Positions 5,600-28,426 of a stretch of 64,000 nucleotides of DNA are shown in pieces. Origin of the DNA: Candidatus Curtissbacteria bacterium. GTDB taxonomy: Bacteria > Patescibacteriota > Microgenomatia > Curtissbacterales > GWA2-41-24. The notes beneath the pieces were generated by a model. The model ran no database searches. It saw only the letters and a program-made list of their open reading frames with translations, and had not been told where the DNA came from. Numbering within the stretch: position 1 is the stretch's first letter; every line of letters starts with the position of its first letter. The position numbers and the translations under genes were made by a program. The stretch is taken from NCBI GenBank assembly GCA_038326365.1, contig JBBQJY010000001.1, positions 12,128-76,127 on the forward strand. The letters are read 5' to 3'.

Positions 5600-5911
5600 A
5601 TGCTAACTGCTCAAGCTATGGTCAGTCCTGCTTATGCGGCGCCACCAACTATCCACGACATCCAGACGATTTTTCAAAACATCATTGGGCTGCTCGCCCC
5701 TGCAACAGCGGTTGCCTTTTTAATAATGCTAATAGTTGGCGGCTTTAAATTTTTAACCTCCGGCGGTGACCCAAAAGCAGTAGGCAGTGCCCGCAGTACA
5801 ATGACTTACGCTATTCTCGGAGTTATCCTGGTTGTTGCCTCTTGGTTAATCCTAGTTCTTGTAAAAGAAATCACAGGCTACGACGTCACCACGTTCAAAT
5901 TGCCTTTCTAA
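5600..5911 (+). CDS. T4SS pilin-like protein (VirB2/TrbC family) with a signal peptide
   Basis: ATG at 5600 lies downstream of the previous stop at 5568. Signal-like MLTAQAMVSPAYAAPP, then LIVGGFKFLTSGGDPKAVGSARSTMTYAILGVILVVASWLIL. The 5483 start would overlap the upstream gene by 86 nt. Confidence 0.5.
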   Translation: MLTAQAMVSPAYAAPPTIHDIQTIFQNIIGLLAPATAVAFLIMLIVGGFKFLTSGGDPKAVGSARSTMTYAILGVILVVASWLILVLVKEITGYDVTTFKLPF

Positions 5912-10830: not shown

Positions 10831-11021
10831 AGTGTTAACCTAAATTAAATATTTACTCCATCGCGGGGAAGCGTAGCGAAAATCTACCACTGTACCGCAA
10901 CGGTAACTCAAAAAAGAGAAGTCCGAATACCACGATGGCTAACTAGGTCCCGAGATAGGACACATGCCCATTGCGCACAATGATTGCAAGCCTTCTTGAG
11001 GACTATCAAGGAGGTTTTTTT

Positions 11022-12164: not shown

Positions 12165-12217
12165 ACCTGCCTTGACTATCGCCTAAATTGTCCCTAATAT
12201 TGATTTAGAGTTTGTCC

Positions 12218-13993
12218 ATGCTTTCTGCCACAAAAATAAAACTGTTGGTTGTTTTACCATTTCTACTTCTTGGCCTCTTTTTTCAACCCAAAATTGCATC
12301 TGCTCAAAGTTACGGTTGGACAATATCGGTTGCTAATGTTTCTGGTACTTCAATTACCTATAATATTACGCCAAACTCCGGTAGCGGATCGGTACTTGTA
12401 TTAACAGACCTTCCATTGGGCGATCCCAACAGAGAATGTACTATTCCACCAAACGTATCCTCATTCACCTGCACTCACCCCGCGGGGACTCATTCGGTCG
12501 AAGTTACATATCTTGGCACTAAACAATCAGCAAACATCTCAGTAACAACTGGAGGAAGTGGTGGTGGTGGAGGAGGAGGAGGTGGAGGTGGAGGTGGACT
12601 CGCTAGCTGTGCTGCTCCGAATCCCGACACAACATCCCGCCAAGCACATGACCTCGTCCTTAAATGCGGTATAGCCAACGGCAGCATGGATAACCTTTAT
12701 TTCACCTTCAGTGAAACAGCCGGCATTCTGGACAGTCTTCAAGTCCTGGTCATGGGCAGTTCTCAACTTCACGAAGAATCAAACAAAGTCACCCAAAACA
12801 CTGGTGCTCTTGCAGGAGCCGCAACACTTGTTGCATCACTCTATAGCCACCCTCCGGCGTCTGGGGTTGAATATTTAGCCGGTGAATTCCAAAAGTTTAA
12901 CCCAACAAAAGACGCTTATGCCCAAACAGGAATCGGCTACGACACACTTCAACCTGTTCAAACCATTTGGGAACTTTTCAGAAACATTTCCTACCTCGGC
13001 TTCGTTATCGTTTTTGTTGTCATTGGTTTTATGATTATGTTCCGAGCACACATATCCCCCCAAGCAGTAGCTACGGTTCAAGATTCATTACCCAGGATCG
13101 TTATCGCACTTGTTCTCGTTACATTCAGTTACGCCATCGCCGGCTTAATGATCGATCTCATGTTCTTGTTTCTGAACGTCATTCTGGGTCTTCTGCCAGT
13201 AACTGACGCATCAAACATTGTCTTCAAAAAAAGTGTTTTCGGCGTCATAACTAGCTCTTGGAAAGACACTTTTGGAACTGTTTTTCATAATGTTCAAGAT
13301 CTTCTCAGTGAGATCATCAAGACTAAATTCTTTGTGGATAAAATTCTTGCCTTCTTCGGGGGCGGTATTGCAGCCCTCGTCGTCGGTATTGCCATGTTTT
13401 TCATAATGTTTAAGGTTTTCCTAATGCTATTAACTGCTTACGTTTCCATTATCCTCTTAACAATCGCAGCTCCATTCTTCTTCCTCTTGCAAGCTTTACC
13501 CGGTAACAACAATGGCATGACTTGGTTTAAACAAATGCTAGCAAATGTGGCCGTTTTCCCAACGGTTGCCATCATGTTCATTCTGGCTGGCTATCTCGGT
13601 GGCATTACGGCACTTGGTGGTAACGACAGTAACCCAGCAATCGGCCAGTCGAGCGGTAACATTGCAAAATTCCCTTTGCTTGCAGGCGATCTGGACCCTA
13701 AAGTTTTGGGGCATCTGGCAGGTATTGGCATTCTACTCATGACGCCAGCCGCGGCTCAACTCGTTAAGGACGCACTCGGTGTCAAGGCTGTAGGGGGCGG
13801 CGCAGCAGGCGCAGCAGCAGCTGGGGCTCTAGGCGCAGGCGCAGCAGTTGCGGGAGCTCCATTTAGGCCAATTCAAGGTGGCTTTGGCAAGGCTACGTCG
13901 GACTATGCTTCAAAAGGACTCTCAACAACAGGCAGGGCAGGGTTTAATAAAGTCAAAGGGGTATTAGGAAGAGGTCCCGGAGGTGATACCTAA
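12218..13993 (+). CDS. Polytopic membrane protein, candidate VirB6/TrbL-like T4SS channel component, with an N-terminal secreted domain, a polyglycine linker and a Gly/Ala-rich tail
   Basis: Signal peptide MLSATKIKLLVVLPFLLLGLFFQPKIASAQS, a GGSGGGGGGGGGGGGGG linker, then at least five hydrophobic helices. It sits next to the pilin, hydrolase and VirB4 genes. I did not recognise a VirB6 signature directly, so this call is by context and topology. Confidence 0.4.
   Translation: MLSATKIKLLVVLPFLLLGLFFQPKIASAQSYGWTISVANVSGTSITYNITPNSGSGSVLVLTDLPLGDPNRECTIPPNVSSFTCTHPAGTHSVEVTYLGTKQSANISVTTGGSGGGGGGGGGGGGGLASCAAPNPDTTSRQAHDLVLKCGIANGSMDNLYFTFSETAGILDSLQVLVMGSSQLHEESNKVTQNTGALAGAATLVASLYSHPPASGVEYLAGEFQKFNPTKDAYAQTGIGYDTLQPVQTIWELFRNISYLGFVIVFVVIGFMIMFRAHISPQAVATVQDSLPRIVIALVLVTFSYAIAGLMIDLMFLFLNVILGLLPVTDASNIVFKKSVFGVITSSWKDTFGTVFHNVQDLLSEIIKTKFFVDKILAFFGGGIAALVVGIAMFFIMFKVFLMLLTAYVSIILLTIAAPFFFLLQALPGNNNGMTWFKQMLANVAVFPTVAIMFILAGYLGGITALGGNDSNPAIGQSSGNIAKFPLLAGDLDPKVLGHLAGIGILLMTPAAAQLVKDALGVKAVGGGAAGAAAAGALGAGAAVAGAPFRPIQGGFGKATSDYASKGLSTTGRAGFNKVKGVLGRGPGGDT
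12553..12600 (+). repeat. Simple (GGN)n repeat encoding a 16-residue polyglycine run
   Basis: ggaggaagtggtggtggtggaggaggaggaggtggaggtggaggtgga, read directly. Confidence 0.75.
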
Positions 13994-13994
13994 T

Positions 13995-16900
13995 TTACCT
14001 GGCAAATACATATTTCAATCCTTGTCGGAAAAACTCAGAACCCCCAAATAATGGCCCTTGCCACCAAATTCTCTTTGCACTTTCAGAAACACCCATTCGC
14101 GCATAAATATCGGCATACTCAGCCAAAAACCTAGCATTTCTAACAGGCAAAATACCGGGCAAGCCTCCCCAGCCCAGATATTCGCGCTTCATCCAGTCTT
14201 TATACTTCACATTTAATCGATTACTTCGAACGGCAAGGTCGATAATTGTCTCCGTATCCGCATGAGGCATATTGTCTACTTCCCCCCACCAAGATTTCCA
14301 ATAAGTACCCAGCCTCTGATGCATCGGTATCACCAGCTTCATCATCGGCTGCAGTCTAACTTCTCGCTTAGAATAAAAATTCTCCAAAGAGAATAACTGT
14401 AAAAACTCCGCATTGTTTGGCTGCTGCAAATAGTGTTGCAGCTTTGGCTTTTCAGGACTCATGAAATTCATCATGGCAGCCCTGTCACCATAAAGATCAA
14501 TCCATCTATATTTCCAGCTATTATCAACTCTAAAAAAATGACTCCACTTACAGTTATCAAACTTAACTTCACCCTGATCCAGGGCTTCTGCGAGGATTGC
14601 CGACTTTGCCCAACCCATTTCTTCCTTATTACCTTTATCGAATTTTTTGATGTTCTTAAAACTATTTGTTTTTCTTTTGATAACTTCTTTTGCCGTTTCA
14701 TTCAATAGCCCGTCAGAATTAATACCTTGTTCCTCGTCCAAAAGGTCGCTGGCAAATCGAACCAGAGTTCGGTTTTGCGGCAACAAGTTTCCATTTTCCC
14801 CAAGCATCTCGTCTTGCATGACATAGTTTGCCTTTTCTACCTTACCGCGAGATTCGTCTATAAAAAATTCCCAGGCGTGGTCAACCATTCTTCCATAGAA
14901 AAAGTCTGTAGATTGGTTGTACACATATCCAGATACTCTCCCCTTGCCACCAGCCGGATTATCTATATTTGGATCCCAAACCCTGATGCCGTCATAATCA
15001 CTCCAAGCCATAACCCAAGCAAGCCTATGAGCATTGTTTACAACCTGGTCGACCAAACCCGTGTCCACCATTTCGATTATTTGTTTATCGCTAAGATTCC
15101 ATTTTTCTTTGTTCTTAACCAGCTCCTCAATCAGTCCACCCCCCGTTGCTACAAGCTCGACGTTTCCATTTGCTTGCTCGACTTTATATTCCCGCTTATT
15201 CCCTACCATCTCACTCTTCCTTAGCCCAACAGCCTCCGCTTGCTCTTTAATTAACCCAAGCATAGTGTTCTCCCTATACCATTTACCTATAGCTTTTTTC
15301 ATATTATCAACACTATAATCATCACCAAGTTCACCTTGTATGGACTCGAGCGCAGCTCTTTCTTCGTCGGTTTTGCCTTTAATTTTCCTGTCTTTCGTCC
15401 AGCTCTCCACAAAGTTCATAAGTAGACGCTCTTTATGGAATCTACCCATGTAAATATTCATTCCGGCGTCCAGCAAATTTACAGAAAGATGCTTCCCTTG
15501 AACATCTTTATTAAATCTTTCAAAATAAACCTCGAAAGTATTGTCCTTAAGGCCCTGAACTACTTTGGAAACAGTCTCAGGATTCATGCTTGCATGCTCC
15601 ATCGTGCTATAGAACTGGTTAATTGCAATAACTGACTCGTACTTTTCCGTCAGTTGCTTCCTGAGCTCAATAGCCCTTTCTTTTTCCTCACCCTCAAGCG
15701 AATCAACAGGTATTCTCAAAACCACCTGTACTGCTCTTTGAATTTTTTGTGATAATTGCTGTTCACCAAAATCAGAGCTTTCAAGAAGCCTCAAAATCCC
15801 GTCTACTGTTTTTTCGCTTTCTTTCCAATCATTTGGCGGCAATTCCGAAGAAATATCCGAAAATCTCAAGTCAAATCCCTGACGATAAACTTGCGCCTTC
15901 CATTTCAATAACTCCGCAAAATCGGGATTTGCATCGACTTCCGTCTCAACAGTTTCGTCAAATATTTCCCGGTAGTCATCGGCTCTACCATAGATACCCC
16001 CCTCTTGTATGGAGTTGACTTGAGAAGCTGAATCTTTTATTCTCCTAAAAAGTGCAGCCAATTGCTCTGGCTTGCTCCTCTTCTCGAGTTCTCGGAATTT
16101 ACTATCTACATGAGCCCTTGCCTCTTCAACAATTTTCTCATCGTCGTCGGACACAATAGACTGAAAAAGATTCAGTTTTTCAGACCCGAGTAATGTGTAT
16201 TTTGATTTAAGTTCGTTAATAGCTAGCGACATTTGTGACAATATGTCATAATTCTTAGGATTTTCGGGGTCTGCAAGAATCATACGAGCTTCTTCGATTT
16301 GGCCTCGATATTCTGTCAATAGTATTCCGTATTGATCGCGCATGCTGGTTTCTCCATTTTCTGTATCCACTCCCTTTTCTTTCAGATACAACAGTCGCTT
16401 AACGACCTCTTCAAGATTTACATGAACTGGAACACGTCTCTTTTCAATCCTACCTTCGTTATTTGGTACCCTCTTGACTACATACATTTCTAAAGGTTCG
16501 TCCCAGTAAATTTCACCGTTTCCCCCACGAATGGCTGGTAGGTTTTTCCCTATCTCGGTGCTTTTAGGCTTGCCCGTCCAGCCAGTCAGCTCAACTGCTC
16601 CATGCTCGGCAGCCCATTTCCAGCGCCTAACGACAGCCCAATTTTTCCACTTATCTTTAGGTACAGTAATTTCGAATCCCCGACCGCGAAAAAAAGCCTC
16701 AGCTGCCGCAGGATCGTCTATATATTCTCCGCGCTTCGTGGTTTCGATTATGATCCTAGGTAGAGCATCGGCGTAAACCAAAATAGCCCCCTCTTCTTTT
16801 GCCAGTGCTTCCATTTTTTCTTCTGTTACTACCTTTAGCTTCTTTCTGATTTCATCTGCCTTCAGAGCAGACTCGCCACGGTGTTTGCGCAAGGATTCTG

Positions 16901-17213
16901 CTATTACCTCTTCAGAGTTCATGCCCACAATCTTAGATTGATCTGCTCCGCTCTCAATAAGCGCAGTTCTCAAACTACTTAAGCTTTCACTGGAAACAGC
17001 TACTTGGTTTGAAGTGTCAAAAGCCTCACTCAATTTCTCAGTGTGTTCTCGGGCATTAAATTGTTTGTTTGGTTTCTTTTTAGCACCTCCGTCACCAGGT
17101 TCAGCTCCTTTGTTTTCGTCTGGAGTCCGCAAGCTTCCATCAGGCATAGTATTTCCCCCTTTATACTCAGCGTACAAGCTGGAGGGGTCAAATGCAATAA
17201 AATCTTCTTTCAT
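13995..17213 (-). CDS. Large (1072 aa) soluble protein of unknown function, rich in charged and Trp residues, inside the T4SS-like locus
   Basis: The ORF is uninterrupted with no TM segments, no Walker motifs and no recognisable catalytic motifs. It is divergent from the ATPase-winged-helix regulator gene. Confidence 0.55.
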   Translation of the reverse strand: MKEDFIAFDPSSLYAEYKGGNTMPDGSLRTPDENKGAEPGDGGAKKKPNKQFNAREHTEKLSEAFDTSNQVAVSSESLSSLRTALIESGADQSKIVGMNSEEVIAESLRKHRGESALKADEIRKKLKVVTEEKMEALAKEEGAILVYADALPRIIIETTKRGEYIDDPAAAEAFFRGRGFEITVPKDKWKNWAVVRRWKWAAEHGAVELTGWTGKPKSTEIGKNLPAIRGGNGEIYWDEPLEMYVVKRVPNNEGRIEKRRVPVHVNLEEVVKRLLYLKEKGVDTENGETSMRDQYGILLTEYRGQIEEARMILADPENPKNYDILSQMSLAINELKSKYTLLGSEKLNLFQSIVSDDDEKIVEEARAHVDSKFRELEKRSKPEQLAALFRRIKDSASQVNSIQEGGIYGRADDYREIFDETVETEVDANPDFAELLKWKAQVYRQGFDLRFSDISSELPPNDWKESEKTVDGILRLLESSDFGEQQLSQKIQRAVQVVLRIPVDSLEGEEKERAIELRKQLTEKYESVIAINQFYSTMEHASMNPETVSKVVQGLKDNTFEVYFERFNKDVQGKHLSVNLLDAGMNIYMGRFHKERLLMNFVESWTKDRKIKGKTDEERAALESIQGELGDDYSVDNMKKAIGKWYRENTMLGLIKEQAEAVGLRKSEMVGNKREYKVEQANGNVELVATGGGLIEELVKNKEKWNLSDKQIIEMVDTGLVDQVVNNAHRLAWVMAWSDYDGIRVWDPNIDNPAGGKGRVSGYVYNQSTDFFYGRMVDHAWEFFIDESRGKVEKANYVMQDEMLGENGNLLPQNRTLVRFASDLLDEEQGINSDGLLNETAKEVIKRKTNSFKNIKKFDKGNKEEMGWAKSAILAEALDQGEVKFDNCKWSHFFRVDNSWKYRWIDLYGDRAAMMNFMSPEKPKLQHYLQQPNNAEFLQLFSLENFYSKREVRLQPMMKLVIPMHQRLGTYWKSWWGEVDNMPHADTETIIDLAVRSNRLNVKYKDWMKREYLGWGGLPGILPVRNARFLAEYADIYARMGVSESAKRIWWQGPLFGGSEFFRQGLKYVFAR

Positions 17214-17308: not shown

Positions 17309-18586
17309 ATGGGAACATTTGAATTACAATTTCCAGGAAATTTTCGCCAGGCAGAAATCGACAAGATTTTGACCTTTGTACAAACCGGCAAATTTTGCCA
17401 ATTAATTTCTACCCCTGGAAGCGGAAAAGCGACTCTTCTGAGGCTGTTGGCCTACAATCCCAATGTTTTAAAATTTCATTTGAAAGAAAAGGGAGCTTCT
17501 ATTAATTTCATTTATCTAAATCTTTTAGACCTTGAAAACTACCAAGAGATTGAAATTCTCAAATACATCCTGCTTGCTCTGAACCAAAAAGCGCAAAGCG
17601 ATGACCTTCTGGCACTAAACAAACAATTAATGGAAATTGTTCACCAGCAAGCAAGCCTTGGCCAAACTACAGTTTTTCTCTTTGACCATTTTGACGAGTA
17701 TCAGAATCAGTTACCTCCGTCGTTTTTTCAGCTTCTAAGGAGTGCGAATAGACAAGCAAGATACAAATTTTCCACCGTCTTTGCAACCAGAAGAGATCTA
17801 GCAGAGTTAGTTGACCCAACAACGATCAAAGATTTTTATGATTTTTTTACTGACAACGCTATTTATATGAAGATCTATGACCCATCCGCCATAGAATTTA
17901 TGGTCTCGCAAATTGAGGCTATATTTAAAAAGAAGATCCCCATAGCGGACAAAGCAAGCATTATTCACCAAACGGGAGGCCATACTAAACTAACGAAGAT
18001 AGTGACAGAAATGCTTATACGCCAAAATCTGTCTCTAGATAATCAGCTGCTTACGAAACCAACAATTTCTTCTACCCTCCAAGAGCTGTGGCTTTTCTTA
18101 ACAGCCCAAGAACAGCAGACCCTCTATCAAATTGCCAATGACGAATACAAAAATCAGCCAGACGAAACAAATAAACTAGAAGCCTTTGGTCTTGTCAAAC
18201 GAAACCAAACACCAGCTAAGGGTTTTGAATTAACCATCCCTTTATTTAAAGAATACATAAAGAACACTATCCCTCAGCTCACCCCAGAAAAGATTACATA
18301 TAACGAGCAAACCAGAGAGATAACCAAAGGTGCAAAAATAATCTCTGATTTGCTTTCGCCTCAAGAAAACCGCTTGCTCAAGTTTTTAATCGAAAATCAA
18401 AACAAGGTTATTCAAAGAGACGAAATCATCAAAGCCGTTTGGCTAGACTCTCAAAATGCCCAAGGCATCTCCGACGAGGCAATTGATCAAATGATTTTTA
18501 GGCTCAGAAAAAAAATTGAAGATGATCCCAACCAACCAGAACGACTGTCAACCGTAAAAGGTCAAGGTTTTCGCTTCAAAGCTTAA
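17309..18586 (+). CDS. Putative transcriptional regulator: N-terminal P-loop NTPase domain fused to a C-terminal OmpR/PhoB-type winged-helix DNA-binding domain
   Basis: Deviant Walker A ISTPGSGKATLL and Walker-B-like TTVFLFDHFDE. The C-terminus QENRLLKFLIENQNKVIQRDEIIKAVWLDS...IDQMIFRLRKKIEDDPNQPERLSTVKGQGFRF is a textbook OmpR-family trans_reg_C fold. Confidence 0.6.
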   Translation: MGTFELQFPGNFRQAEIDKILTFVQTGKFCQLISTPGSGKATLLRLLAYNPNVLKFHLKEKGASINFIYLNLLDLENYQEIEILKYILLALNQKAQSDDLLALNKQLMEIVHQQASLGQTTVFLFDHFDEYQNQLPPSFFQLLRSANRQARYKFSTVFATRRDLAELVDPTTIKDFYDFFTDNAIYMKIYDPSAIEFMVSQIEAIFKKKIPIADKASIIHQTGGHTKLTKIVTEMLIRQNLSLDNQLLTKPTISSTLQELWLFLTAQEQQTLYQIANDEYKNQPDETNKLEAFGLVKRNQTPAKGFELTIPLFKEYIKNTIPQLTPEKITYNEQTREITKGAKIISDLLSPQENRLLKFLIENQNKVIQRDEIIKAVWLDSQNAQGISDEAIDQMIFRLRKKIEDDPNQPERLSTVKGQGFRFKA

Positions 18587-18590: not shown

Positions 18591-20420
18591 TTATGCAGAA
18601 AACTTAGCCTCTGCTTCTTGCGCTTTTTTGCGCATCTCCAGAAGCTCTTCCGGGTTTGTTGTGACTAATGAGTGCTCCTCAGGTGAAGCAATTACTCGAA
18701 TCGCCACGTGATTTGGCCCGGCAAAAAATATTCCTTCTCCAACGTCTGCCGCCAAAAGCAAATGCCGCTCTCCTTCAGTCAGATAAAAAACGTCAGTCAG
18801 TTTATCAATAGCAGCCGGCGATTGCTTCATCAGTATCTGAATTGACGAGTTAGTAACAATAGCCTTCCCGTAGTCGGTTTCCAAAAAGTCTTCGACGTCC
18901 TGAGAAATTGTTGTCAGGCCTAGGTAATATTTTCTTGCCCGCTTGGCAATGGAGTACATAAACGTTGCGCTGTCCGGATGCTGCATCATATACCAAGCCT
19001 CGTCCACAATTAATATTCTCTTCCTGATGTCATTTTTAATGCGCGTCCAGATAAAGTCTAAAATTAGATATATGGCAATAGGTCGCAAAGATTCTTCCAT
19101 GTTTTTAATTGAAAAAACAGTAAAAGTATTCCTAATGTCTAAGTTTGAATGCTGGTTAAAAATACCGATTAAGGACCCCTTAACGAACTTCTCGAGCCGG
19201 TCCGCAAGTCCCTTGGCTGCTTCTTCCTCCATCCCCAAAAAAGCTTTATAAAGGTCTTCCATCAGCGGTGGCTCATTTTTCTGACTAGCCGGCTCCGGCG
19301 TTATTCCTTTAGCTTTATAAGTTGCAACCAGAGCCCTGTCTAAAATTGCGTCCTCAGTCGGCGTCATCGCACCCATTATCACTTTAAAAAATCCGTGCAG
19401 TGAAAGTATTTTGAGCCCCAATTCGTTTTCACCCTCTTCGTATACTCCCGAAAGGTCAAATGGATTAATCTTCACCTGGCTATCAAAATCAAAAGAAATG
19501 TATTCCCCGCCAATTGCCTCACAAAGATTTTTGTATTCTTCCTCCGGGTCAATGACAATTATTTCTGTTCCGAACATCAAAGACCTCAAGGCTTCCAGCT
19601 TAACCATGTAAGATTTTCCGGCACCGGACTTCGCAAAAATTACCGAATTAGCATTTTCTTGAGTAAACCGATCAAAAATTACCAGCGACCCGTTGTGTTC
19701 GTTAATCCCATACATAATGCCTGTGCTGGAAGTTAAGGACGAAGAAATAAATGGGAATGTTGTCGCCAAGCTAGTCGTATCCATATTTCTGGTGATATAT
19801 AGGTGGTCTGTCGCCTGTGGCAACGTAGTTTTAAACGCTTCTTCCATTTGCAACGAAGCGTGTTTGGGAACCAAAAGCAGTGCTCCCATTGTCGACTCCA
19901 CTTGCTTACAAATTGTATTTAACTCTTCCAATGTTTCGGCCGGAACTGAAACATAAAGCCCGAATTGGAAAAAACGCTCAGAACCTTTTACCAACTCTTC
20001 CTGTAAAACTTGCGCATCCTCCAAAGCCGCCGAAACGGTCGGATCAATTACGTGGCCATGCTGAATATCAGAAGCAATCGTCGCCTCCATTTCCGTAATT
20101 TTGCGCTTCAAGTCATCAAGCACACCTTTGGCCTCAACCGGATACTGATACATGGATATTTCCAATGTGTGTTCGAAGTTAATAAGCGGCGAGAGCCAAT
20201 TAGCCTGCACATATCGAGGATAACCAACTACGAATAGTGTCCGCCAATAAGTCGATCCGATTTTGATGTAGTCGAAATCAATCTCAATGGCCGGCGGCGC
20301 AATAATGTCTTTGACTGAGACCACTCCTCGAGCCAAAGTACTAGCCCATTGTTGCTCTTTTGCAGTCAAACCCAAATCGGCATTTTTTTCCTTTTTCCCA
20401 AAGATATTAATTATATTCAT
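18591..20420 (-). CDS. virB4: VirB4/TrbE/ConE-family T4SS ATPase
   Basis: Walker A SVIFAKSGAGKSYMV and the VirB4-type Walker B RILIVDEAWYMM. The N-terminus DYIKIGSTYWRTLFVVGYPR is typical of Gram-positive-type VirB4. Length is 609 aa. Confidence 0.8.
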   Translation of the reverse strand: MNIINIFGKKEKNADLGLTAKEQQWASTLARGVVSVKDIIAPPAIEIDFDYIKIGSTYWRTLFVVGYPRYVQANWLSPLINFEHTLEISMYQYPVEAKGVLDDLKRKITEMEATIASDIQHGHVIDPTVSAALEDAQVLQEELVKGSERFFQFGLYVSVPAETLEELNTICKQVESTMGALLLVPKHASLQMEEAFKTTLPQATDHLYITRNMDTTSLATTFPFISSSLTSSTGIMYGINEHNGSLVIFDRFTQENANSVIFAKSGAGKSYMVKLEALRSLMFGTEIIVIDPEEEYKNLCEAIGGEYISFDFDSQVKINPFDLSGVYEEGENELGLKILSLHGFFKVIMGAMTPTEDAILDRALVATYKAKGITPEPASQKNEPPLMEDLYKAFLGMEEEAAKGLADRLEKFVKGSLIGIFNQHSNLDIRNTFTVFSIKNMEESLRPIAIYLILDFIWTRIKNDIRKRILIVDEAWYMMQHPDSATFMYSIAKRARKYYLGLTTISQDVEDFLETDYGKAIVTNSSIQILMKQSPAAIDKLTDVFYLTEGERHLLLAADVGEGIFFAGPNHVAIRVIASPEEHSLVTTNPEELLEMRKKAQEAEAKFSA

Positions 20421-20429
20421 ATCGAAGAT

Positions 20430-21527
20430 TTATCCTATTTTCTGCCCCCCAACAACGTTTTGCACTGGAACAGTCGCAATTCCGGCGTTTACCGCACCTC
20501 GCATCTGGCTGGCTCGGGCAATTGCTTCCTGTAAGTCATTTAGCGCTTGCGACGATTGGCCTGGGACCGAAGTGACAGCTGGCACAATAGGCGGCACATC
20601 TCCTTCTCCTGCAGCACTAGTTACGGACGTAGGCAAGATAATTGGTTGGGGCGTCGCAATTGGCGAAGGCACTTCGCCGACAAGCGGGCTTGCGGCGCTT
20701 TGGGCCAATATTGGCTCCCCTGCAACTCCGGTATTGGCAATAACCGGAGGTTGAGCATACTGACCCGCACCTGATTCAATTGTAGGCTCAGCAACAACAG
20801 CAACCCGCACATCAGGCGCTTGAATCGGCACAGGCTCGGGCGCAGGTGTTGGAACCTCCACCGCCGGCTCCACCAGAGGAGTCGTGTAGCTTGCAGCATC
20901 AAGTATTACTCTCTGAGTTCCTGTCGGAGCAGGATTATAAATATCGTAATATAATTCGATTAGCTCTTGAGTCGTCAACTGTCTCGAGAAAAGTCCAAGT
21001 CGTGCAGTTTGCTTAATAATATGATCTCTCTTTGGCGCAAGCGCTGATTTGGCGTCAGCAATGAGCTCCGCCTTACCCTTGGCATTGTGAGAATCTGATT
21101 TCTTAAAACTCTTGACACCTAGCTCCAAAGGCGAAAAGTGCAATATCAAATAAAAACGCTTATCTAGAATTGTCTTTTGTTGAACTGTTGATTGAATAAA
21201 TTCCCTATAACTCTTTATCTGCAATCTGAGATCCGGATTGGGCTGATTTCTCTCAGCCTCAACTAAATGCTGATAGTAAGCTGTAATATCGGCTTTTTTT
21301 GAACGAATCAAAACCTGCAAAGGGAAGGTTAGTGAATTAAGTAGCGCGCCATAAGCATAAATCGTCGCATCCTGTTCGGCTTCCGAAAGAATATCAAAAT
21401 TTACGGCAGTTGTAGACATCACCATTGAAACCCAACCTGTTTTTATAATCACCAAGTCATCAGTAATGTCCTCAATATCCAAGTGATCCTGGGTGGAAGC
21501 CTTAATCTTATCGCCTGCAGAAGCCAT
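20430..21527 (-). CDS. Hypothetical protein translationally coupled between the VirB3-like and VirB4 genes, with a C-terminal tail rich in Pro/Ala/Val
   Basis: There is a 1-nt overlap with the upstream gene and a 9-nt gap to virB4. No TM segment. The PAPEPVPIQAP low-complexity tail is evident. Confidence 0.45.
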   Translation of the reverse strand: MASAGDKIKASTQDHLDIEDITDDLVIIKTGWVSMVMSTTAVNFDILSEAEQDATIYAYGALLNSLTFPLQVLIRSKKADITAYYQHLVEAERNQPNPDLRLQIKSYREFIQSTVQQKTILDKRFYLILHFSPLELGVKSFKKSDSHNAKGKAELIADAKSALAPKRDHIIKQTARLGLFSRQLTTQELIELYYDIYNPAPTGTQRVILDAASYTTPLVEPAVEVPTPAPEPVPIQAPDVRVAVVAEPTIESGAGQYAQPPVIANTGVAGEPILAQSAASPLVGEVPSPIATPQPIILPTSVTSAAGEGDVPPIVPAVTSVPGQSSQALNDLQEAIARASQMRGAVNAGIATVPVQNVVGGQKIG

Positions 21528-23101
21528 TAATTTTTCACTTGTCCCTGAAGCCCTAAGGGGGCCAAGATCTCTCCTTTCAAACTTATTGATGTCGGCACAA
21601 ACGATGCCTTCTCACTCTCAATTTCTATCGTGTAATTACCGTCAGAAAGCGGTGTGGCCGACAAAAATTGGCCCAACTTGTTTGTTTTTAAGGCGCGAAT
21701 CGGAATTCCACCAGCATCCCGAACAACCAGTACTGCTCCTTCAAGAGGCGTTCCAATGGAATCTGTTACCATCCCTGAAAGCACATTAGGATTACTGGTT
21801 AGAGGAATTATTTGGGCACCAATATTGTTGGCCACACTTTTAATCTGCTTTTTATCTGTTATCGAGAATTTTGTTTGATCATCATCTTTTCGCTTAGGCG
21901 CCTTTTGGGTCCCCTGGGCAACTGCAGCAACCATCCCACCCACAGCCTCCGGTGCTCTGACTTGGGCTTTGGGTAAAACCTGACTAAGATCGGCTTCTGT
22001 CAATTTGTTTGCAAACTGCACACTGCCCACAGTAGAGTTGGTTTCGTTGGGTAAAACCACCTGTGGTGTATCGTCCTCAAAATTAAACCTCCTTGCCAAC
22101 TCGTCAGAAATTTCAAACCGACGCTCACCTCGTATTGGCAGCTTAGAGAGATCAAAATTCTCAGGCGGAGCAAAGTGCAATTTTCTTACCCTAGTCTGAC
22201 CAACTCCCCGAACCAATCTTATTTTGTTGTCAGGCTCTTTTAAGGAGATAATATTGTCCACAGAAAAGTTTGTGTCAGATGCCAAATGGGAAAGTGGTGG
22301 CGACTTTTTTGGAACCGACTCCATCCTTCGACGTCTCAGTCTATCTTCCAGTCCTTTGATAACAAATGGTTGGGCATGTTTTGCAATTCTTGGTTCGGTT
22401 GCGCCAACTATCGGCAATTGTTTGCGATTCCCAACAACAACTTTCGACTTCTCGTCAAATGCTCGAATTGCAACTGGTGTTTCAATTTTGATGCTGTCCG
22501 GCCCAACCTCGCGCGGCACAGGTTGACCAACTTTTCTGCTTACTCCGCTATTCGTATTTTTTGCGCTTGGCCAAATAATCGGAGGCGGGACGCTTCCTGC
22601 CCCCACATCGTCTCCTCCCAAGTCCAACTGAAAAATTGCTTTGTCCTCACGCATGTCGAGCGGTGACTCGTTATCCTTAGGAAGAGATCTCAAATAAGCA
22701 ATCAGCCTTTCGCGCCCTCTTTCGGTTATTTCTTCCGGAATTTTTTGCTCTTGTGTCTGGGGACGTATAACTACACTCAGAAATTCTGGTAAATTTCTCT
22801 CCTTTACCCAAATTCGTTGCGTGGGCGCAAAAATTGCGTGAATAAAAGCAACGATCCACTTGTCAAATGGCCTTCCTTGCACCGGAACCAAAGCAACGAA
22901 CAACCCAATTCCGCCAATCAATACAGAAAGAGGAATCCTAACTATAGCAGCGGTTTGGGAGAAGAAAATAAAACCCGCTACAACCATCGGTCCTACTAAA
23001 AACATAAATTGCCTGACTGTTAAGTTGCCAAAAAGTTTAAACTGAAATGAAGCTATGTGCTGCGGGACAGGATGTTGTTCCATAGGTTTGAGTACCAGCA
23101 A
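21527..23101 (-). CDS. Membrane protein with a VirB3-like N-terminal two-TM region fused to a large extracytoplasmic region that ends in a CarboxypepD_reg-like beta-sandwich
   Basis: The N-terminus FGNLTVRQFMFLVGPMVVAGFIFF resembles the VirB3 L-x-RPA-hF-GVP motif. It is the first gene of the operon ending in virB4. Confidence 0.4.
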   Translation of the reverse strand: MLVLKPMEQHPVPQHIASFQFKLFGNLTVRQFMFLVGPMVVAGFIFFSQTAAIVRIPLSVLIGGIGLFVALVPVQGRPFDKWIVAFIHAIFAPTQRIWVKERNLPEFLSVVIRPQTQEQKIPEEITERGRERLIAYLRSLPKDNESPLDMREDKAIFQLDLGGDDVGAGSVPPPIIWPSAKNTNSGVSRKVGQPVPREVGPDSIKIETPVAIRAFDEKSKVVVGNRKQLPIVGATEPRIAKHAQPFVIKGLEDRLRRRRMESVPKKSPPLSHLASDTNFSVDNIISLKEPDNKIRLVRGVGQTRVRKLHFAPPENFDLSKLPIRGERRFEISDELARRFNFEDDTPQVVLPNETNSTVGSVQFANKLTEADLSQVLPKAQVRAPEAVGGMVAAVAQGTQKAPKRKDDDQTKFSITDKKQIKSVANNIGAQIIPLTSNPNVLSGMVTDSIGTPLEGAVLVVRDAGGIPIRALKTNKLGQFLSATPLSDGNYTIEIESEKASFVPTSISLKGEILAPLGLQGQVKN

Positions 23102-23363
23102 GAAGTTACATCAGAGGAACTACATTGTAAGGACGAATTCCATGAGACTTACAAATAGGACTGCTGATATGAATGCAAATTCTACCTCCGCCGCTAATCG
23201 AACTCACCATAACATATGAAACTCGTTCGTCAAAGACCATTAATTTAGCTTCCAAATTTAAGTTTTCACAACAAACTCATGTCTCCCAAAGATATGGTTA
23301 GGTCGACAATCGAAACATCATAAAAATTTCGTTTTGCTCATTTGATATAGTAGAAGTAATAAA

Positions 23364-25931
23364 ATGTCTGCCAAAACTAGTCAGCTTAAACAAATAAGAA
23401 CTCGGACAGAGAATTCTCTCCAGGATCTTCATCGCAATAAAAGAATAACAGAAGAAAGTATCGCAACCACCTCTTCACGCCTCAGAGATCTTAAAGAAGA
23501 ATACACTCAAGCAGCCTCAGCCGGGGCAAGCGAAAGTACTGGCCAGCTTTCAGAAAACATCAACACGCTTGAAGAAAACTTAAAATCCCTTAGTGAAAGT
23601 AAACAAAAAATCGAAGAAGCAGTTTATGAAAAATCAAAAGAGATTGAAAATCTTCATTCAGAAATAGCCAAGGTTGAAAACGAGCATGAATCGTCCGATT
23701 TTTCATTCGGATCTGACAAAAAAAGGGGGGGTCATATCAAAGAATCTGCACAAACGAAAGCTTCAGGTTTAGTAACTACAACCCAAGGCGTGAAGATTAA
23801 AAAGAGAAAATTGATTGGTTTCAGGGGTAGAACAATTCAAGGCACAGGTGCACTGGCACAAACTCCTCAAACCGCCACGGTCGGTCCATCATCAGGCCAA
23901 GTAAGCTACACCATTCAAACTAATACGGCCGCAGCCAGCCAAAACGTGAGCCCTCAAAATGCCGTCTCATCCTCCACAAACCTCTCAAATGTGGTCTCAG
24001 CCGGGAGTCCATTGGAATTAGCCAAAGCGGTAATCGGGGAGGGTAAAGCCACCATTGACGGCGTCATTGGCCAAGGAAGTAGCATCACAAGTATCCTTTC
24101 CAAGGGATCGGGTTTTAGCCCTCAAAGAAAAATCGGCCTTATTGCTCTAAAAGGGGGAGTAGTTGCCTCTCTTGGGGCTGGGCTGGCAGCAGCAGCTGTC
24201 ATCGCCTATTTTGCAAAATTGGGCGCCGCAGCCGCTCACGGTGCCGCAATTGGAGCAACAGTAGGAGGAGTGGCAGGAGCAACCTACGGCGGATTTTTAG
24301 GTTTCCAAGTCGGCGTCGCACTTGCTCCTTTCACCTTCGGACTATCGATTCCAATAGCAACTGCAGTGGGAGCAGCCTTGGGCGCAGGCGTCGGGGCTAC
24401 CGTTGGTGCTTTGGCGGGCGGGCTCATTGGCTTAGGAGTAGCTAGCGGCTCCGCAACAATTATCTCCACAGGAGTAGGGGCAGGCATCGGAGGAGTTATT
24501 GGTGCAGTCGCCGGAGCAACTCTCGGAGCAGCCGCAGTAGCCTGGATTCCTTTTATCGGGCCCTTTCTAGCTCCTTTTGGTGCAGTTATTGGAGCAACCA
24601 TCGGTGCAGCAGTGGGTGCGGCAATCGGTGCCGTCGCAGGATACTATATTGGAAAATATGTCTTACAACCTATCCAGGACAACCTGGAAACGGTCACGGG
24701 TTCAGTCGGAACAGCCTCAGGAGGGCTTGTCTACAGCTTTACAACATTTATCTCCTGGACTTTTAACCTTGTCGGCGGCTTTTTCTCCGGGCTTGTCGGC
24801 GGCGCGGGTATTGTGGGAGGAGCAACCATTGGTGCAGCAGCCTCACTTTGGAATGGGGCAATTGGAATCTTGGGTAATGCTACTGGTGCTCTGGCTAGTA
24901 TTGCGGACAAAGCGCTTGGGGCACTTTCCTCGCTTGGAAGTAGTGTTTCAAGCCTCACGCTACCCGCAGTGGGCACTGCATTCGGCACAGTAGTTACAGT
25001 TACTGCTGCAGCCAGCCTTATTACCAGCGCCACGGCTTTTACCCCGAAACTTGATCTTAGTTCTGAATTGCTCCAAAAACCAGGTGAAAACGACTTTTTT
25101 TCTATAACAAAAACTGCTTCACCGCAAACTCTTAGCTCAAAAGGGCCCGACGTTACATTTACGATCAGTGTTAACGCGAAGCAGAACATAAAAGATATCG
25201 GCTTCGTTGAAAACTTCCATTACCTACAGGGCGCAACAAACCAACCCTTAGTGGTGCCTAAAACATTAACTTGTACGTTACCCATTTTAAAAGGAGACAC
25301 CTGCACTGTTAATTTCACATTTTCTACTTCACCCCTACCAGACAATGTCTTGCTTATTAACACCGTTCTGGCTCATGTCACGATCGACAACAGCGCCAAT
25401 TCAGTCCAAGACGAGTCCGCAACAGCCATTGTCAAAATTGGTTCTCCGCCCACAAACTGTCCATCGGGTTGGCCAACACCAGCTGGTACTGTCACTCAGG
25501 GTATCCAAGGAACTACCTCGCACTACCGCCTATTCCCAGCGGAGCAGGCAATTGACATTGCTGGAGCCGCAAGCCGTGGGACCCCAACATTCACCACCTT
25601 CTCAGGCGTTGTAGCTACAAAAAATGACCAAACTGAGAACCCTGGGTATGGATACTTTGTTGATGTGACGGGTAACTGCAATGGGCAGACATTCACAGCG
25701 AGGTGGGCACACTTGGAAAGCATCAGCGCAGGCGTTCCCGATGTAGGTGAAACTATCAATACAGGAACAGAAATTGGGAAAATAGATGCCACAGGCCATG
25801 TTCTTTGCGACCCCCAACCTTGCGACCCTTCCCATTTGCACTATAGCTTTTTTGGTCTTGATATGAAAACGCCATATATTCCTCAAGACCCCATAGCAAT
25901 TTGTGATGGTGATTGTGGGGTGAGCTGGTAA
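23364..25931 (+). CDS. Membrane protein with an N-terminal coiled coil, a roughly 300-aa Gly/Ala-zipper hydrophobic region and a C-terminal M23/LytM peptidase domain
   Basis: The C-terminus EIGKIDATGHVLCDPQPCDPSHLHYSF matches the M23 Gx(I/V)G..G.TG.xxGPHLH signature. The central region is (GAxxG)n-rich. Confidence 0.6.
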   Translation: MSAKTSQLKQIRTRTENSLQDLHRNKRITEESIATTSSRLRDLKEEYTQAASAGASESTGQLSENINTLEENLKSLSESKQKIEEAVYEKSKEIENLHSEIAKVENEHESSDFSFGSDKKRGGHIKESAQTKASGLVTTTQGVKIKKRKLIGFRGRTIQGTGALAQTPQTATVGPSSGQVSYTIQTNTAAASQNVSPQNAVSSSTNLSNVVSAGSPLELAKAVIGEGKATIDGVIGQGSSITSILSKGSGFSPQRKIGLIALKGGVVASLGAGLAAAAVIAYFAKLGAAAAHGAAIGATVGGVAGATYGGFLGFQVGVALAPFTFGLSIPIATAVGAALGAGVGATVGALAGGLIGLGVASGSATIISTGVGAGIGGVIGAVAGATLGAAAVAWIPFIGPFLAPFGAVIGATIGAAVGAAIGAVAGYYIGKYVLQPIQDNLETVTGSVGTASGGLVYSFTTFISWTFNLVGGFFSGLVGGAGIVGGATIGAAASLWNGAIGILGNATGALASIADKALGALSSLGSSVSSLTLPAVGTAFGTVVTVTAAASLITSATAFTPKLDLSSELLQKPGENDFFSITKTASPQTLSSKGPDVTFTISVNAKQNIKDIGFVENFHYLQGATNQPLVVPKTLTCTLPILKGDTCTVNFTFSTSPLPDNVLLINTVLAHVTIDNSANSVQDESATAIVKIGSPPTNCPSGWPTPAGTVTQGIQGTTSHYRLFPAEQAIDIAGAASRGTPTFTTFSGVVATKNDQTENPGYGYFVDVTGNCNGQTFTARWAHLESISAGVPDVGETINTGTEIGKIDATGHVLCDPQPCDPSHLHYSFFGLDMKTPYIPQDPIAICDGDCGVSW

Positions 25932-26947
25932 TGACACTCAGCACCGCTGCTTTAGTAGTAAAAAAGAGTATCTTTCCGGTTGTATTGTTGTTAGTTTTTT
26001 TTATTTCTCTCGTACTAATCTACGTCCGTTATGGTAAAAAGAGTGTGCCTCTCCCTCCAAAATTGCAACCGCCAACAATTAGCCAAAGCTTAATTCAGAA
26101 ACAACCTCAGAATTTTGACGATACAGCACTGCAATTGCCAAAAGTTCCCGCAGATTTACCTGTTTACCATTTTAAGAACCAAAACGTTGGAGAAAAGTAT
26201 GCTAGAGATGTGGCCAATAGCTTTGGGCTTACAACAAATCCAAGAGTCGAAAACACAAGCATTGGGCCGCAATTTTTCTTCAACCAAGATAATTTAGATC
26301 TCGCTGTTAATAAAATAGAAATAAGATTTAAAAATTACAAAGCTAAGCCCCAAACAACCCCAAAAACAGAAGGCGAAGTCCTGGATATCGCTCGTAATTT
26401 TATTGATAGTCTAAAATTCGCTAACCTCAATCTTAAATTAGATAACACACGAATTTTCTACCTCACGATCGAAACACAACGTTATAAAAGTACCACGCGG
26501 GATAATGCCAAATATTATGAATTGTTTTTCAATTCATTTATCAATGATCTGCCTATTTTGACTGGTAATAATGAGCCGTATTTAGCCCGAATGATCATTT
26601 CAAAACAGGGCAACATTCTCGAAGCACACATACACAACCCTGTTTCAATTCTTGATAATCAAACTTATCCCCTTAAAAAACCGACACAAGCCCTAAATGA
26701 ACTTATGGCTGGAGGAGGTAAATTGATTTCAGCAGAAACTTTGGACGAACAAGGACAATCCATTGAATTATTCAGCTTCAGTCCAGTAGACATCAACAAG
26801 GTTTCTATCAAAAAAATATACCTTGCTTACTTTTTATCAGAAAAAGAAAATGAGATGCTTCAACCCGTCTATGTCTTTGTTGGCTCATTTACAACCCCTT
26901 CAAACAAACAAGGCGAGGTCACATTATATGTTCCGGCAGTTAAGTAG
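25931..26947 (+). CDS. Hypothetical membrane-anchored protein
   Basis: N-terminal TM helix VVLLLVFFISLVLIYV. The start is taATG, overlapping the upstream stop. An alternative start lies at 25913. Confidence 0.45.
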   Translation: MTLSTAALVVKKSIFPVVLLLVFFISLVLIYVRYGKKSVPLPPKLQPPTISQSLIQKQPQNFDDTALQLPKVPADLPVYHFKNQNVGEKYARDVANSFGLTTNPRVENTSIGPQFFFNQDNLDLAVNKIEIRFKNYKAKPQTTPKTEGEVLDIARNFIDSLKFANLNLKLDNTRIFYLTIETQRYKSTTRDNAKYYELFFNSFINDLPILTGNNEPYLARMIISKQGNILEAHIHNPVSILDNQTYPLKKPTQALNELMAGGGKLISAETLDEQGQSIELFSFSPVDINKVSIKKIYLAYFLSEKENEMLQPVYVFVGSFTTPSNKQGEVTLYVPAVK

Positions 26948-27280: not shown

Positions 27281-28426
27281 TCAGTTCTGGAGCCGAACAG
27301 GCATTATGATATGAAAGAAAGATGCAGAGCCAGAAGCTGCAGTAATTTTCCCAGGGTTTAAACTCTCATTCATTTCAAAACCAACTTCCTCTCCATCAAT
27401 GACACTAAGTACTTCAAGTAAATATCTAAAATTAAAGGCTATTTCCCCTCCACGACCCTTCAAATTAAATGGGATTTTCGAGTCACTAGAGCCCACCTGC
27501 GCCGTGTTTGCACTGACAGTTAGGAACTGTGCCTTCCCTTCTACACCGAGCTTCATCCTTATTATATTTCCCGAATCCCTTGCAAAAATCGATGCGATTT
27601 TAATGACCCGCACAAGCTCTTCCTTATTTATCTTGGCACTTGTTGAAAAGTTGCTGGGGATTAACTTGTCCCATGCAGGATAAGTGCCCTCAATAAGTCT
27701 CGTTGTAAACTCAACCCGACCAACCTCAAAAACTGCCTGGTTAAGATCATCAGATAAAAGCAATATTACATTTGCCTCTTTTCCTTCAACACTCTTCTGC
27801 TCCTCAACAATTTTGGCAACCTCAGAAAAAGCCTTGGAGGGAATAATAAACGACACCCCTCCTATATCCGCTCCAGCTGTTACCTCAATATGGGCATGCC
27901 CCAACCTAAAGCCATCAGTTGCAACAAGAGTTAAACCCTTTTTGCTAAGTTGACAAAGAACCCCCGTCAAAATCGGTCTACTTTCATCAACTGCCGCACA
28001 AAAAGCAACCTTGCCCACACAATTTATTAAATCAACTGGTTTAAGCTCAATCCGTTTACCTCCGACTATTTTGGGGATGGCTGGGAACTCTTCGGGTCCC
28101 ATTGTGGAAAGCCTTGCATTGAAGTCACCTGAGGAGATTAATAGTTCCTCACCAAGTTTTTCAACAGAGATAGTTCCTCCAACTAACTGCGAGATAAATT
28201 CAACCAGAGCTCGACCTACAACTGTAATCCCCCCTTCTCTCTCCACTTTCGCTTCAACCTCAACCCTACACGCTGTTTCCAGGTTTGTTGTAATTATCTC
28301 TAGTTTTTTACCACTAGACCTCAAAAGTACATTAGAAAGAATGGGCAAATTTGCCTTTAGCATTAGCGAGCGCGTGGCTACATTGAGTGCTCGTAAAAAG
28401 TCAGATTGTTCTAAAAAAACCTTCAT
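27281..28426 (-). CDS. dnaN: DNA polymerase III beta sliding clamp
   Basis: 381 aa, immediately downstream of dnaA. Three-domain clamp sequence starting MKVFLEQSDFLRALNVATRSL. Confidence 0.9.
   Translation of the reverse strand: MKVFLEQSDFLRALNVATRSLMLKANLPILSNVLLRSSGKKLEIITTNLETACRVEVEAKVEREGGITVVGRALVEFISQLVGGTISVEKLGEELLISSGDFNARLSTMGPEEFPAIPKIVGGKRIELKPVDLINCVGKVAFCAAVDESRPILTGVLCQLSKKGLTLVATDGFRLGHAHIEVTAGADIGGVSFIIPSKAFSEVAKIVEEQKSVEGKEANVILLLSDDLNQAVFEVGRVEFTTRLIEGTYPAWDKLIPSNFSTSAKINKEELVRVIKIASIFARDSGNIIRMKLGVEGKAQFLTVSANTAQVGSSDSKIPFNLKGRGGEIAFNFRYLLEVLSVIDGEEVGFEMNESLNPGKITAASGSASFFHIIMPVRLQN

Follow-up and report, generated by a model that had tools for sequence, protein, structure and literature searches.

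The window analysed here is a stretch of 64,000 nucleotides (nt) from Candidatus Curtissbacteria bacterium (assembly GCA_038326365.1, contig JBBQJY010000001.1, positions 12,128-76,127 of the forward strand). It carries three adjoining minus-strand genes of a chromosomal type IV secretion system (T4SS), which encode, in this order, a long PrgI-family homolog of VirB3, a TrsD-like protein and the VirB4 ATPase. An open reading frame (ORF) scan gives 21527-23101 (524 amino acids (aa), TTG start) for gene 1, 20430-21527 (365 aa) for gene 2 and 18591-20420 (609 aa) for gene 3; the coordinates, the strand, the overlap at 21527 and the near-abutment of 20430 and 20420 reported in a preliminary description of this DNA were all confirmed on the sequence. 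Searches with all three ORFs returned hundreds to thousands of homologs each, and the ORFs are therefore not chance. The features of the operon, in window coordinates, are the following:

21527-23083, minus strand: gene 1, PrgI/VirB3 family in an extended form, 518 aa from the ATG at 23083 (the mechanical ORF runs up to the TTG at 23101)
22811-23071, minus strand: PrgI/VirB3 module of gene 1, with a short N-terminal tail, a two-helix transmembrane hairpin (about 22877-23017) and an amphipathic C-terminal helix
22073-22288, minus strand: highly conserved block in the VirB3 extension, HLAS.TNFS...GVG.TRVRKLHFAPP.NFDLSKLPIRGERRFEIS.ELKRRF, with many invariant columns
21542-21799, minus strand: transthyretin-like/CarboxypepD_reg-like β-sandwich, the C-terminal domain of the VirB3-like protein, motif KTNKLGQFLSAT
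20430-21527, minus strand: gene 2, TrsD-like, 365 aa, a detached VirB4 N-terminal subdomain followed by a tail
20913-21527, minus strand: folded α/β domain of gene 2 (residues ~1-205), homologous to the VirB4 N-terminus
20499-20912, minus strand: Pro/Ala/Val-rich disordered tail of gene 2 (206-324) and short conserved amphipathic helix (325-343), motif Q..AL.NLQ.A..+A
18591-20420, minus strand: gene 3, VirB4 ATPase, 609 aa, Walker A AKSGAGKS at 19611-19634 and Walker B DEAW at 18993-19004

Genes 1 and 2 overlap by one nt at 21527 in a TAATG junction (...AAA AAT TAATGG CTT..., read from the sequence), and the TAA of gene 2 at 20430 is followed by a 9-nt spacer, ATCTTCGAT, and then by the ATG of gene 3 at 20420. 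The compact operon of a VirB3-like gene and virB4 that the preliminary description proposed is borne out, and its genes are probably co-translated.

Genes 2 and 3 match two parts of one VirB4

The 609-aa product of gene 3 carries Walker A (AKSGAGKS) at residues 263-270, with GAGKS at 266-270, and Walker B (DEAW) at residues 473-476. It scores 378.3 bits on the NCBIfam model of CD1110 family VirB4-like proteins (NF045971; cutoff 325), Pfam P-loop_TraG matches it with E=1.7e-28, and its residues 227-587 match the VirB4 C-terminal domain of PDB entry 4AG5 with E=4.1e-51; on the generic model TIGR00929 it stays below the cutoff (119.8 bits vs 643). The CD1110 match covers model positions 180-733 of 752. 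The initial description of this protein as a VirB4 with canonical GAGKS and DEAW motifs is thus correct for the motifs, but the protein is N-terminally incomplete: the first ~180 positions of the VirB4 model are absent, and this single polypeptide does not hold complete N- and C-terminal domains together.

The 365-aa product of gene 2 matches positions 2-121 of the CD1110 model, so that the two proteins tile one VirB4 model. It also matches positions 99-278 of the VirB4_plasma model (Mbov_0397 VirB4; E=3.6e-5) and, over residues 8-136, the NCBIfam TrsD/TraD model NF041427 (E=3.8e-7). Its homologs carry a precomputed PF26593 (TraC-like) match; Pfam searches with the full length and with the N-terminal 224 aa gave nothing even at E<=10, the Pfam copy searched apparently omitting PF26593, and PDB sequence searches with the protein alone or with a 59-sequence profile gave nothing meaningful. 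In the AlphaFold2 (AF2) model, residues ~15-200 mostly reach a predicted local distance difference test score (pLDDT) >90; disorder follows, and then the helix at 325-343 (pLDDT up to 92). The top 14 Foldseek matches of this model in the PDB are all R388 TrwK/VirB4 (best E=4.6e-4), and the next ones are unrelated and non-significant. We conclude that the 365-aa protein is TrsD-like and a VirB4 N-terminal subdomain: it is small and soluble, has no hydrophobic segment, is homologous to the VirB4 N-terminus and is encoded directly upstream of virB4.

The two parts also occur joined. P0317, a protein of 787 aa, is a natural fusion that covers CD1110 positions 3-735 in a single stretch; its residues 6-205 share 41% identity with the TrsD-like domain of the window and its residues 213-781 share 67% with residues 40-609 of the window VirB4. 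The fusion is real because it is found in two independent samples and in a syntenic locus (PrgI, VirB4, M23 peptidase, 332-aa protein, dnaN, dnaA). In the 609-aa protein the first ~35 residues are poorly conserved, and the core begins at SVKDIIAPPAIEVDFDYIKIG, which is the joining point to the TrsD-like part in the fused ortholog. Judged by their sequences, genes 2 and 3 are one VirB4 that is split in two.

The folded domain of the TrsD-like protein is followed by a stretch of unusual composition: residues 206-324 hold 22 Pro, 18 Ala and 18 Val among 119 (49% Pro+Ala+Val), and the hydrophobicity scan and the composition both agree with the earlier account of a middle protein with no transmembrane segment and a tail rich in Pro, Ala and Val. 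An exhaustive HMMER search yielded 1704 stand-alone TrsD-like representatives (50%-identity clusters) in which the domain is always N-terminal, with low-complexity tails that range from zero to ~500 residues. Among Curtissbacteria-like genomes, identity stands at 70-87% over the first 225 residues, and the tail is hypervariable save for the terminal motif Q..AL.NLQ.A..+A. Since a regular expression for the tail helix matches only 2/105 of the broader TrsD-like representatives, the conserved helix and the long tail are a Curtissbacteria-level trait, not a family-wide one; in other orders the TrsD-like protein measures just 210-260 aa, which marks the tail as an addition of particular lineages.

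A VirB3 homolog with a long conserved extension

The second methionine of the mechanical ORF, M7 (MEQHPVPQHIASF), is the start in all 23 aligned homologs of gene 1, which sets the gene at 21527-23083 and its product at 518 aa (the automatic call in an independent assembly starts even later, at M33, and cuts into the PrgI domain). Its N-terminus had been likened to VirB3, and a profile search agrees: Pfam PrgI (PF12666) matches residues 11-97 (524-aa numbering) over profile positions 1-90 of 91 with 34.1 bits, above the gathering cutoff of 27, and the homologs carry a precomputed PF12666 match and the NCBI name 'PrgI family protein'. The sole hydrophobic region on the Kyte-Doolittle scale spans residues 21-70 (M7 numbering), and AF2 builds helices at 29-46 and 52-71 (the hairpin) and at 79-91, that is, the two transmembrane helices and subsequent C-terminal α-helix of the VirB3 family. 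As for VirB3 genes, the position is directly upstream of virB4, in the form of the 1-nt overlap with the TrsD-like gene that encodes the VirB4 N-terminal piece. VirB3 proteins are small (~100-120 aa) with short cytoplasmic ends, whereas this product has 518 aa. The gene 1 product is a VirB3 homolog of the PrgI family.

The remaining ~420 aa form an extension that is mostly flexible. It is not junk, because the alignment shows invariant short blocks between variable low-complexity stretches: IPEEIT..GRERL.AYLRSLPK, PPPIIWP, a 70-residue block HLAS.TNFS...VGKTRVRKLHFAPP.NFDLSKLPIRGERRFEIS and the β-sandwich with KTNKLGQFLSAT. The long block at 22073-22288 has no match in Pfam and no known domain, and its AF2 confidence is low. 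The AF2 run on the PrgI-like protein (24 sequences, mean pLDDT 59) is usable for the hairpin, one helix and the β-sandwich, the last at residues 435-520 with pLDDT 90-94. Foldseek matches this sandwich to carboxypeptidase D (3mn8, E=3.5e-6) and also to 5aq0, CnaB2 8bdw and related sandwiches, in support of the CarboxypepD_reg-like C-terminal fold that had been proposed; Pfam CarboxypepD_reg (PF13620) scores 27.2-29.2 bits, under its cutoff of 32.3, and PDB sequences searched with the PrgI-like protein yielded no more than a marginal β-sandwich match (4v4c_B, E=0.15).

The extension is present in at least 206 proteins and, in a scan of GTDB species representatives, in 272 of them, which span Curtiss-, Gottesman-, Chisholm-, Davies-, Beckwith-, Ames- and Shapirobacteria, CPR3 and WWE3. 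The architecture was at first called uncommon, which is true of VirB3 at large but not within Microgenomates, where it is standard. More distant relatives of 330-480 aa have the β-sandwich alone in common with the extension. A search for the extension as a stand-alone protein or on other domains returned only PrgI proteins or their fragments.

The position of the extension relative to the membrane can be predicted. No hydrophobic segment follows the hairpin (the later maximum of the 19-residue Kyte-Doolittle mean is 1.04), and 137 homologs have no genuine hydrophobic segment beyond the PrgI module, four flagged 19-mers being the first strands of the β-sandwich. Two transmembrane helices place both ends on the same side of the membrane, and the distribution of lysines and arginines (two before the first helix, one in the 8-residue loop, six in the 40 residues past the second helix) favours N-in/C-in. 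In canonical VirB3 both termini are short and cytoplasmic (PMC12857230), and the helix after the hairpin makes contact with the cytoplasmic VirB4 (PMC12857230; PMC12624023). From the canonical topology, the lack of a third transmembrane segment and the positive charges, we predict that the ~420-aa extension is cytoplasmic; the earlier view of a ~430-aa extracytoplasmic region is unsupported on the same grounds.

Conservation across related loci

All three genes could be delimited in 62 complete related loci from GTDB species representatives. The order long PrgI, TrsD-like, VirB4 on one strand is found in every one (62/62), and the TrsD-like and VirB4 reading frames are separate throughout. Where these two meet, 22 loci show an overlap of 4 nt and 4 loci one of 1 nt, with the reservation that start codons are estimated and gaps approximate. 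Protein lengths depend on the lineage (PrgI 297-572 aa, TrsD 210-418 aa). Three loci with called genes share as neighbours a regulator with AAA_22 and Trans_reg_C domains, a ~1070-aa protein, an M23 peptidase protein, a ~340-aa protein, dciA, dnaN and dnaA, and in some of these loci the triad as a whole has the opposite orientation. For each of the three proteins, the nearest homologs belong to metagenome-assembled genomes of Curtissbacteria and other Microgenomates.

Some variants are found around this scheme. The genome with the fused VirB4 has a PrgI protein of only 273 aa (L083 5183-6004, L084 59-880), and a shorter VirB3 extension and an unsplit VirB4 may co-vary. The VirB4 ORF is about double in length in four loci (L019, L047, L057 and L081; 1181-1231 aa) and has 816 aa in two more (L038 and L072), which suggests a C-terminal fusion with a downstream gene, or could be an artefact of ORF extension.

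Genomic neighbourhood

Three further features of the window bear on the operon:

23084-23363: intergenic region between the operon and the divergent 855-aa M23 peptidase gene, presumed promoter region
23364-26947, plus strand: two conserved neighbour genes (855 aa and 344 aa), probably parts of the same machine
3777-5911, plus strand: VirB2-like pilin array of four or five tandem divergent genes (T4SS_pilin/TrbC; Pfam PF18895, PF04956)

One σ70-like site lies upstream of gene 1 at 23233-23206 on the minus strand, and the number of such sites is not above the shuffled expectation. Counts in the promoter and terminator scan were indistinguishable from those in shuffles and speak neither for nor against a single transcript; tRNA and Rfam scans gave nothing connected with the operon.

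The 855-aa protein (23364-25931, plus strand, divergent from the operon) has an N-terminal coiled coil, a Gly/Ala-rich polytopic membrane region and a C-terminal M23 peptidase domain (Pfam E=8e-8); it is hydrophobic at 257-291, 311-427 and 535-553, with Gly-zipper matches, and its counterparts beside the triad in other genomes have 568-1150 aa. It could combine the roles of a VirB1-like wall hydrolase and a VirB6-like channel, VirB6 having been reported as 'scarce' in Microgenomatia. The 344-aa protein (25913-26947, plus strand) is bitopic, with one N-terminal transmembrane segment (8-42) and no domain match, an architecture that makes it a better VirB8-like candidate than the 365-aa protein. 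The pair of an M23 gene and a ~340-aa gene also adjoins the triad in L002, L003/L004 and L083. In the pilin array, PF18895 matches the ORFs 3777-4457, 4154-4792, 5149-5568 and 5483-5911 and, weakly, 4789-5130, and PF04956 (TrbC) matches 5483-5911; the ORFs 3777-4457 and 4154-4792 overlap, and the second gene probably starts near 4460.

On the other side of the operon, a 425-aa protein (17309-18586, plus strand) combines an AAA_22/STAND-like NTPase with a C-terminal winged helix of the OmpR/PhoB type (Trans_reg_C) and has no receiver domain. Its gene is convergent with virB4, with 4 nt between the stop codons, and stays next to the triad in other genomes; the protein may be a regulator dedicated to the T4SS. 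Four large ORFs have no Pfam or NCBIfam match: 13995-17213 (minus, 1072 aa), 12212-13993 (plus, 593 aa), 10971-12164 (plus, 397 aa) and 5957-9577 (plus, 1206 aa). Judged by size and by position beside the triad, the first three have putative counterparts of 1079, 592 and 387 aa in L002 and of 1080-1103, 529 and 421 aa in L003/L004; these loci showed nothing that would correspond to the 1206-aa ORF. The large unmatched ORFs may be further parts or substrates of the T4SS. An AdoCbl-II (cobalamin) riboswitch at 10849-10940 (plus strand; 38.3 bits vs a gathering cutoff of 36.5) lies 30 nt upstream of the 397-aa ORF, within the gene neighbourhood associated with the T4SS. At the edge of the pilin/T4SS neighbourhood, a 550-aa protein with a SpoIID domain of the lytic transglycosylase type (932-2584, minus strand) is a candidate wall-remodelling enzyme.

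The adjoining housekeeping genes are dnaN (27281-28426) and dnaA (28641-29972), followed by yidC and a jag-like KH/R3H gene; LeuRS, TsaD, CTP synthase and GroEL are encoded farther off in the window. The guanine-plus-cytosine (GC) content of the operon is unremarkable relative to its flanks. The flanking genes and the taxonomy of the homologs thus place the operon on an origin-proximal part of a Patescibacterium chromosome, not on a plasmid or an obvious mobile element. Relaxase, type IV coupling protein (T4CP) and integrase domains were absent from the ~37 ORFs scanned across the window, an absence that is not absolute given several large ORFs with no domain match at all.

Alternative explanations

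A gene that separates VirB3 from VirB4 in an operon like those of Gram-positive T4SSs might also encode a VirB8/TcpC/ConB-type scaffold of the channel, VirB4 being then complete on its own. The preliminary description had pointed to such profiles for the middle protein, and VirB8 homologs are mostly undetectable in Patescibacteria (Quiñonero-Coronel et al., 2025; PMC12102498), so that a divergent one could hide. We rejected this identity and give it hardly any credence: the 365-aa protein has no transmembrane anchor, it has no VirB8/TcpC/NTF2-type hidden Markov model match in Pfam or NCBIfam at E<=0.1, and its best fold matches are VirB4 chains rather than NTF2-like proteins; by sequence it aligns with the N-terminal part of VirB4 models, an orthologous locus has it joined in frame to VirB4, and model positions 1-179 are absent from the 609-aa VirB4. 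Less probable still, to the point of being negligible, is that the split is an artefact or a pseudogene, a single virB4 gene having been broken here by a frameshift, nonsense mutation or misassembly. A single-polypeptide form does exist (P0317), but the split form is the rule, given the 1704 stand-alone cluster representatives and the count of TrsD homologs in the published survey (PMC12102498). The two ORFs have their own start codons in all 62 complete related loci, often with an ATGA overlap, the 70-87% identity of the N-terminal 205 residues across many genomes implies strong purifying selection, and the assembly of an independent read set contains an identical 365-aa protein.

The topology of the VirB3 extension is the point at which another reading deserves most weight. 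The extension could lie outside the cell, as a surface or wall-spanning arm with an adhesin-like β-sandwich at its tip, provided that the hairpin is inverted to N-out/C-out. The Foldseek neighbours of the sandwich are mostly extracellular (CnaB pilin domains, carboxypeptidase D, the S-layer protein SlaB), Pro/Ser/Thr-rich linkers are typical for wall-spanning regions, and monoderm T4SSs require wall-spanning parts, VirB8-like proteins being apparently missing here. We nevertheless consider this arrangement unlikely. Two transmembrane helices with nothing hydrophobic after them in 137 homologs, and a charge distribution that favours N-in/C-in, argue against it, as does the fact that the VirB4-binding helix that follows the second transmembrane helix in canonical VirB3 falls within the PrgI match; moreover the protein has neither cysteines nor a signal peptide, transthyretin-like folds are known in cytoplasmic enzymes too (for example HIU hydrolase, 3qva, also found by Foldseek), and the cytoplasmic TrsD-like protein has a similar low-complexity tail, so that such tails are not diagnostic of export. 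It is far less probable, and in our view very improbable, that the operon belongs to an integrative and conjugative element of the MPF-FATA class that transfers DNA, even if the best VirB4 match is the CD1110 (CTn2) conjugal-transfer ATPase model and the PrgI and TrsD families were first defined on conjugative plasmids. The operon is embedded among housekeeping genes near dnaN, dnaA, yidC and jag, it occupies the same chromosomal position in many species (including on contigs >1 Mb), its GC content does not stand out, and the scanned ORFs yielded no relaxase, T4CP or integrase domain; two studies also conclude that the systems of this clade are non-conjugative (PMC12102498; PMC10633639).

Discussion

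The window locus is a member of the known chromosomal T4SS of Patescibacteria and shows no essential difference from it; the preliminary description had not recognised that this system was already published (PMC12102498; PMC10633639). Quiñonero-Coronel et al. reported that it has a VirB4 clade related to MPF-FATA, with TrsD, which adjoins virB4, as the most abundant associated component (2,272 homologs), a PrgI-type VirB3, VirB2 arrays especially in Microgenomatia, a position near dnaA/dnaN and mostly no relaxase (PMC12102498). Southlakia epibionticum requires a homologous T4SS, SEML1_0006-0019, for its epibiotic growth (Wang et al., 2023; PMC10633639). The window locus agrees in its chromosomal position by dnaA/dnaN, its MPF-FATA-like VirB4 with an adjacent TrsD homolog, its PrgI-type VirB3, its VirB2-like pilin array, its M23-type wall hydrolase and the lack of any detected relaxase or T4CP nearby. 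Only 22.6% of the Microgenomatia VirB3 hits were reported near virB4 (PMC12102498), whereas here and in the 62 related loci a long PrgI gene lies directly upstream of TrsD and VirB4; this difference possibly reflects how hits were counted. Neither of the two papers contains the tiling of one protein by TrsD and VirB4 together with their fusion at an orthologous locus, the long β-sandwich-bearing extension of VirB3 or the direct upstream position of the long PrgI gene in Microgenomates. The ~420-aa VirB3 extension and its CarboxypepD_reg-like domain have no mention in PMC12102498, and our literature search found no paper that pairs VirB3 with 'carboxypeptidase regulatory'.

Among conjugation systems, the closest parallel in gene order is TrsC-TrsD-TrsE of the Staphylococcus plasmids pGO1/pSK41, with a VirB3-like protein, a small relative of the VirB4 N-terminus and a VirB4 ATPase. 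Unlike these, the window locus is chromosomal, non-conjugative and associated with pilins, and its TrsD-like protein reaches no more than 30 bits with the TrsD model (cutoff 200) and continues into a disordered Pro/Ala/Val tail whose terminal helix is conserved. The PrgI-PrgJ pair of pCF10 and the TrwM-TrwK pair of R388 share with the window the VirB3 two-helix hairpin followed by a helix, a VirB3 gene immediately upstream of, and overlapping, the ATPase gene, and Walker A and B motifs in VirB4; the TrsD-like fold itself matches TrwK. In contrast, PrgI (117 aa) and TrwM are both small, and their cytoplasmic ends are short (PMC12857230), while the window VirB3 has 518 aa and a terminal β-sandwich, and PrgJ and TrwK are single polypeptides while the window VirB4 is held in two genes. 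Fusions of VirB3 to VirB4 in Campylobacter and Actinobacillus (PMC12624023) show that domain boundaries are fluid and that the VirB3 C-terminus is cytoplasmic; the window has gone in the opposite direction, with the module spread over three polypeptides.

Very probably, then, the triad is the cytoplasmic-membrane energising module of a chromosomal, monoderm-type (MPF-FATA-related) Patescibacteria T4SS with a split VirB4. In T4SSs studied so far, VirB3 is a two-helix membrane protein that is present 1:1 with VirB4 and serves as the membrane tether of the central VirB4 hexamer; recruitment of the VirB2 pilin falls to VirB3 together with VirB6, and VirB4 energises pilus biogenesis (PMC12624023; PMC12857230). 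By analogy, the hairpin of the gene 1 product would sit in the membrane and its post-hairpin helix would dock the VirB4 ATPase. Gene 2 would supply the first N-terminal subdomain of VirB4 and gene 3 the rest of the N-terminal domain with the RecA-like ATPase domain, and the two parts would reassemble non-covalently. The TAATG overlap and the 9-nt spacer may provide for joint production of the three products in matched amounts, which would fit the 1:1 VirB3:VirB4 stoichiometry reported for other T4SSs. The resulting VirB3/TrsD/VirB4 complex could power the extraction and assembly of the nearby VirB2-like pilins, the export of a substrate, or both; conjugation is not expected because no relaxase or coupling protein was detected nearby.

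Several points weigh against this interpretation. The TrsD-like protein scores 30.1 bits on NF041427 against a cutoff of 200, which makes it only a remote relative of staphylococcal TrsD and not a member by the NCBI threshold. The Foldseek matches to TrwK have modest TM-scores of 0.28-0.30, taken over a full-length query that is half disordered, and leave the aligned part of TrwK unspecified; the bulk of the VirB3 extension is modelled by AF2 at low confidence. We infer both the single transcript, from gene spacing alone, and the assembly of the three proteins.

What the VirB3 extension does is a matter for a more tentative hypothesis, which we hold to be possible but doubtful: VirB3 may have gained a cytoplasmic arm in Microgenomates and neighbouring lineages, and this arm, together with the detached VirB4 piece and its tethered helix, may form a cytoplasmic platform. 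If so, the platform might replace functions that are missing from these machines without relaxase or T4CP, for example by recruiting substrates or pilins or by bracing the VirB4 hexamer in a way comparable to VirB8/VirB10 tails or VirB11 in other systems. A cytoplasmic β-sandwich on VirB3, if confirmed, would be an inner-membrane-complex architecture that is undescribed in the T4SS literature we searched.

The result is for the most part the correct re-annotation of a known system; what is new is the VirB3 arm, predicted to be cytoplasmic, and a clean pair of split and fused VirB4 forms. The Patescibacteria are a huge and mostly uncultured group, and Saccharibacteria require this T4SS to grow on their host bacterium (PMC10633639). 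Reading TrsD and VirB4 as one split ATPase would give a structural role to the most abundant 'function-unknown' component of this system and the correct set of subunits for modelling its inner-membrane complex, and the extended VirB3, found in 272 species representatives, could serve as a specific, testable entry point to the differences between these machines and conjugation systems.

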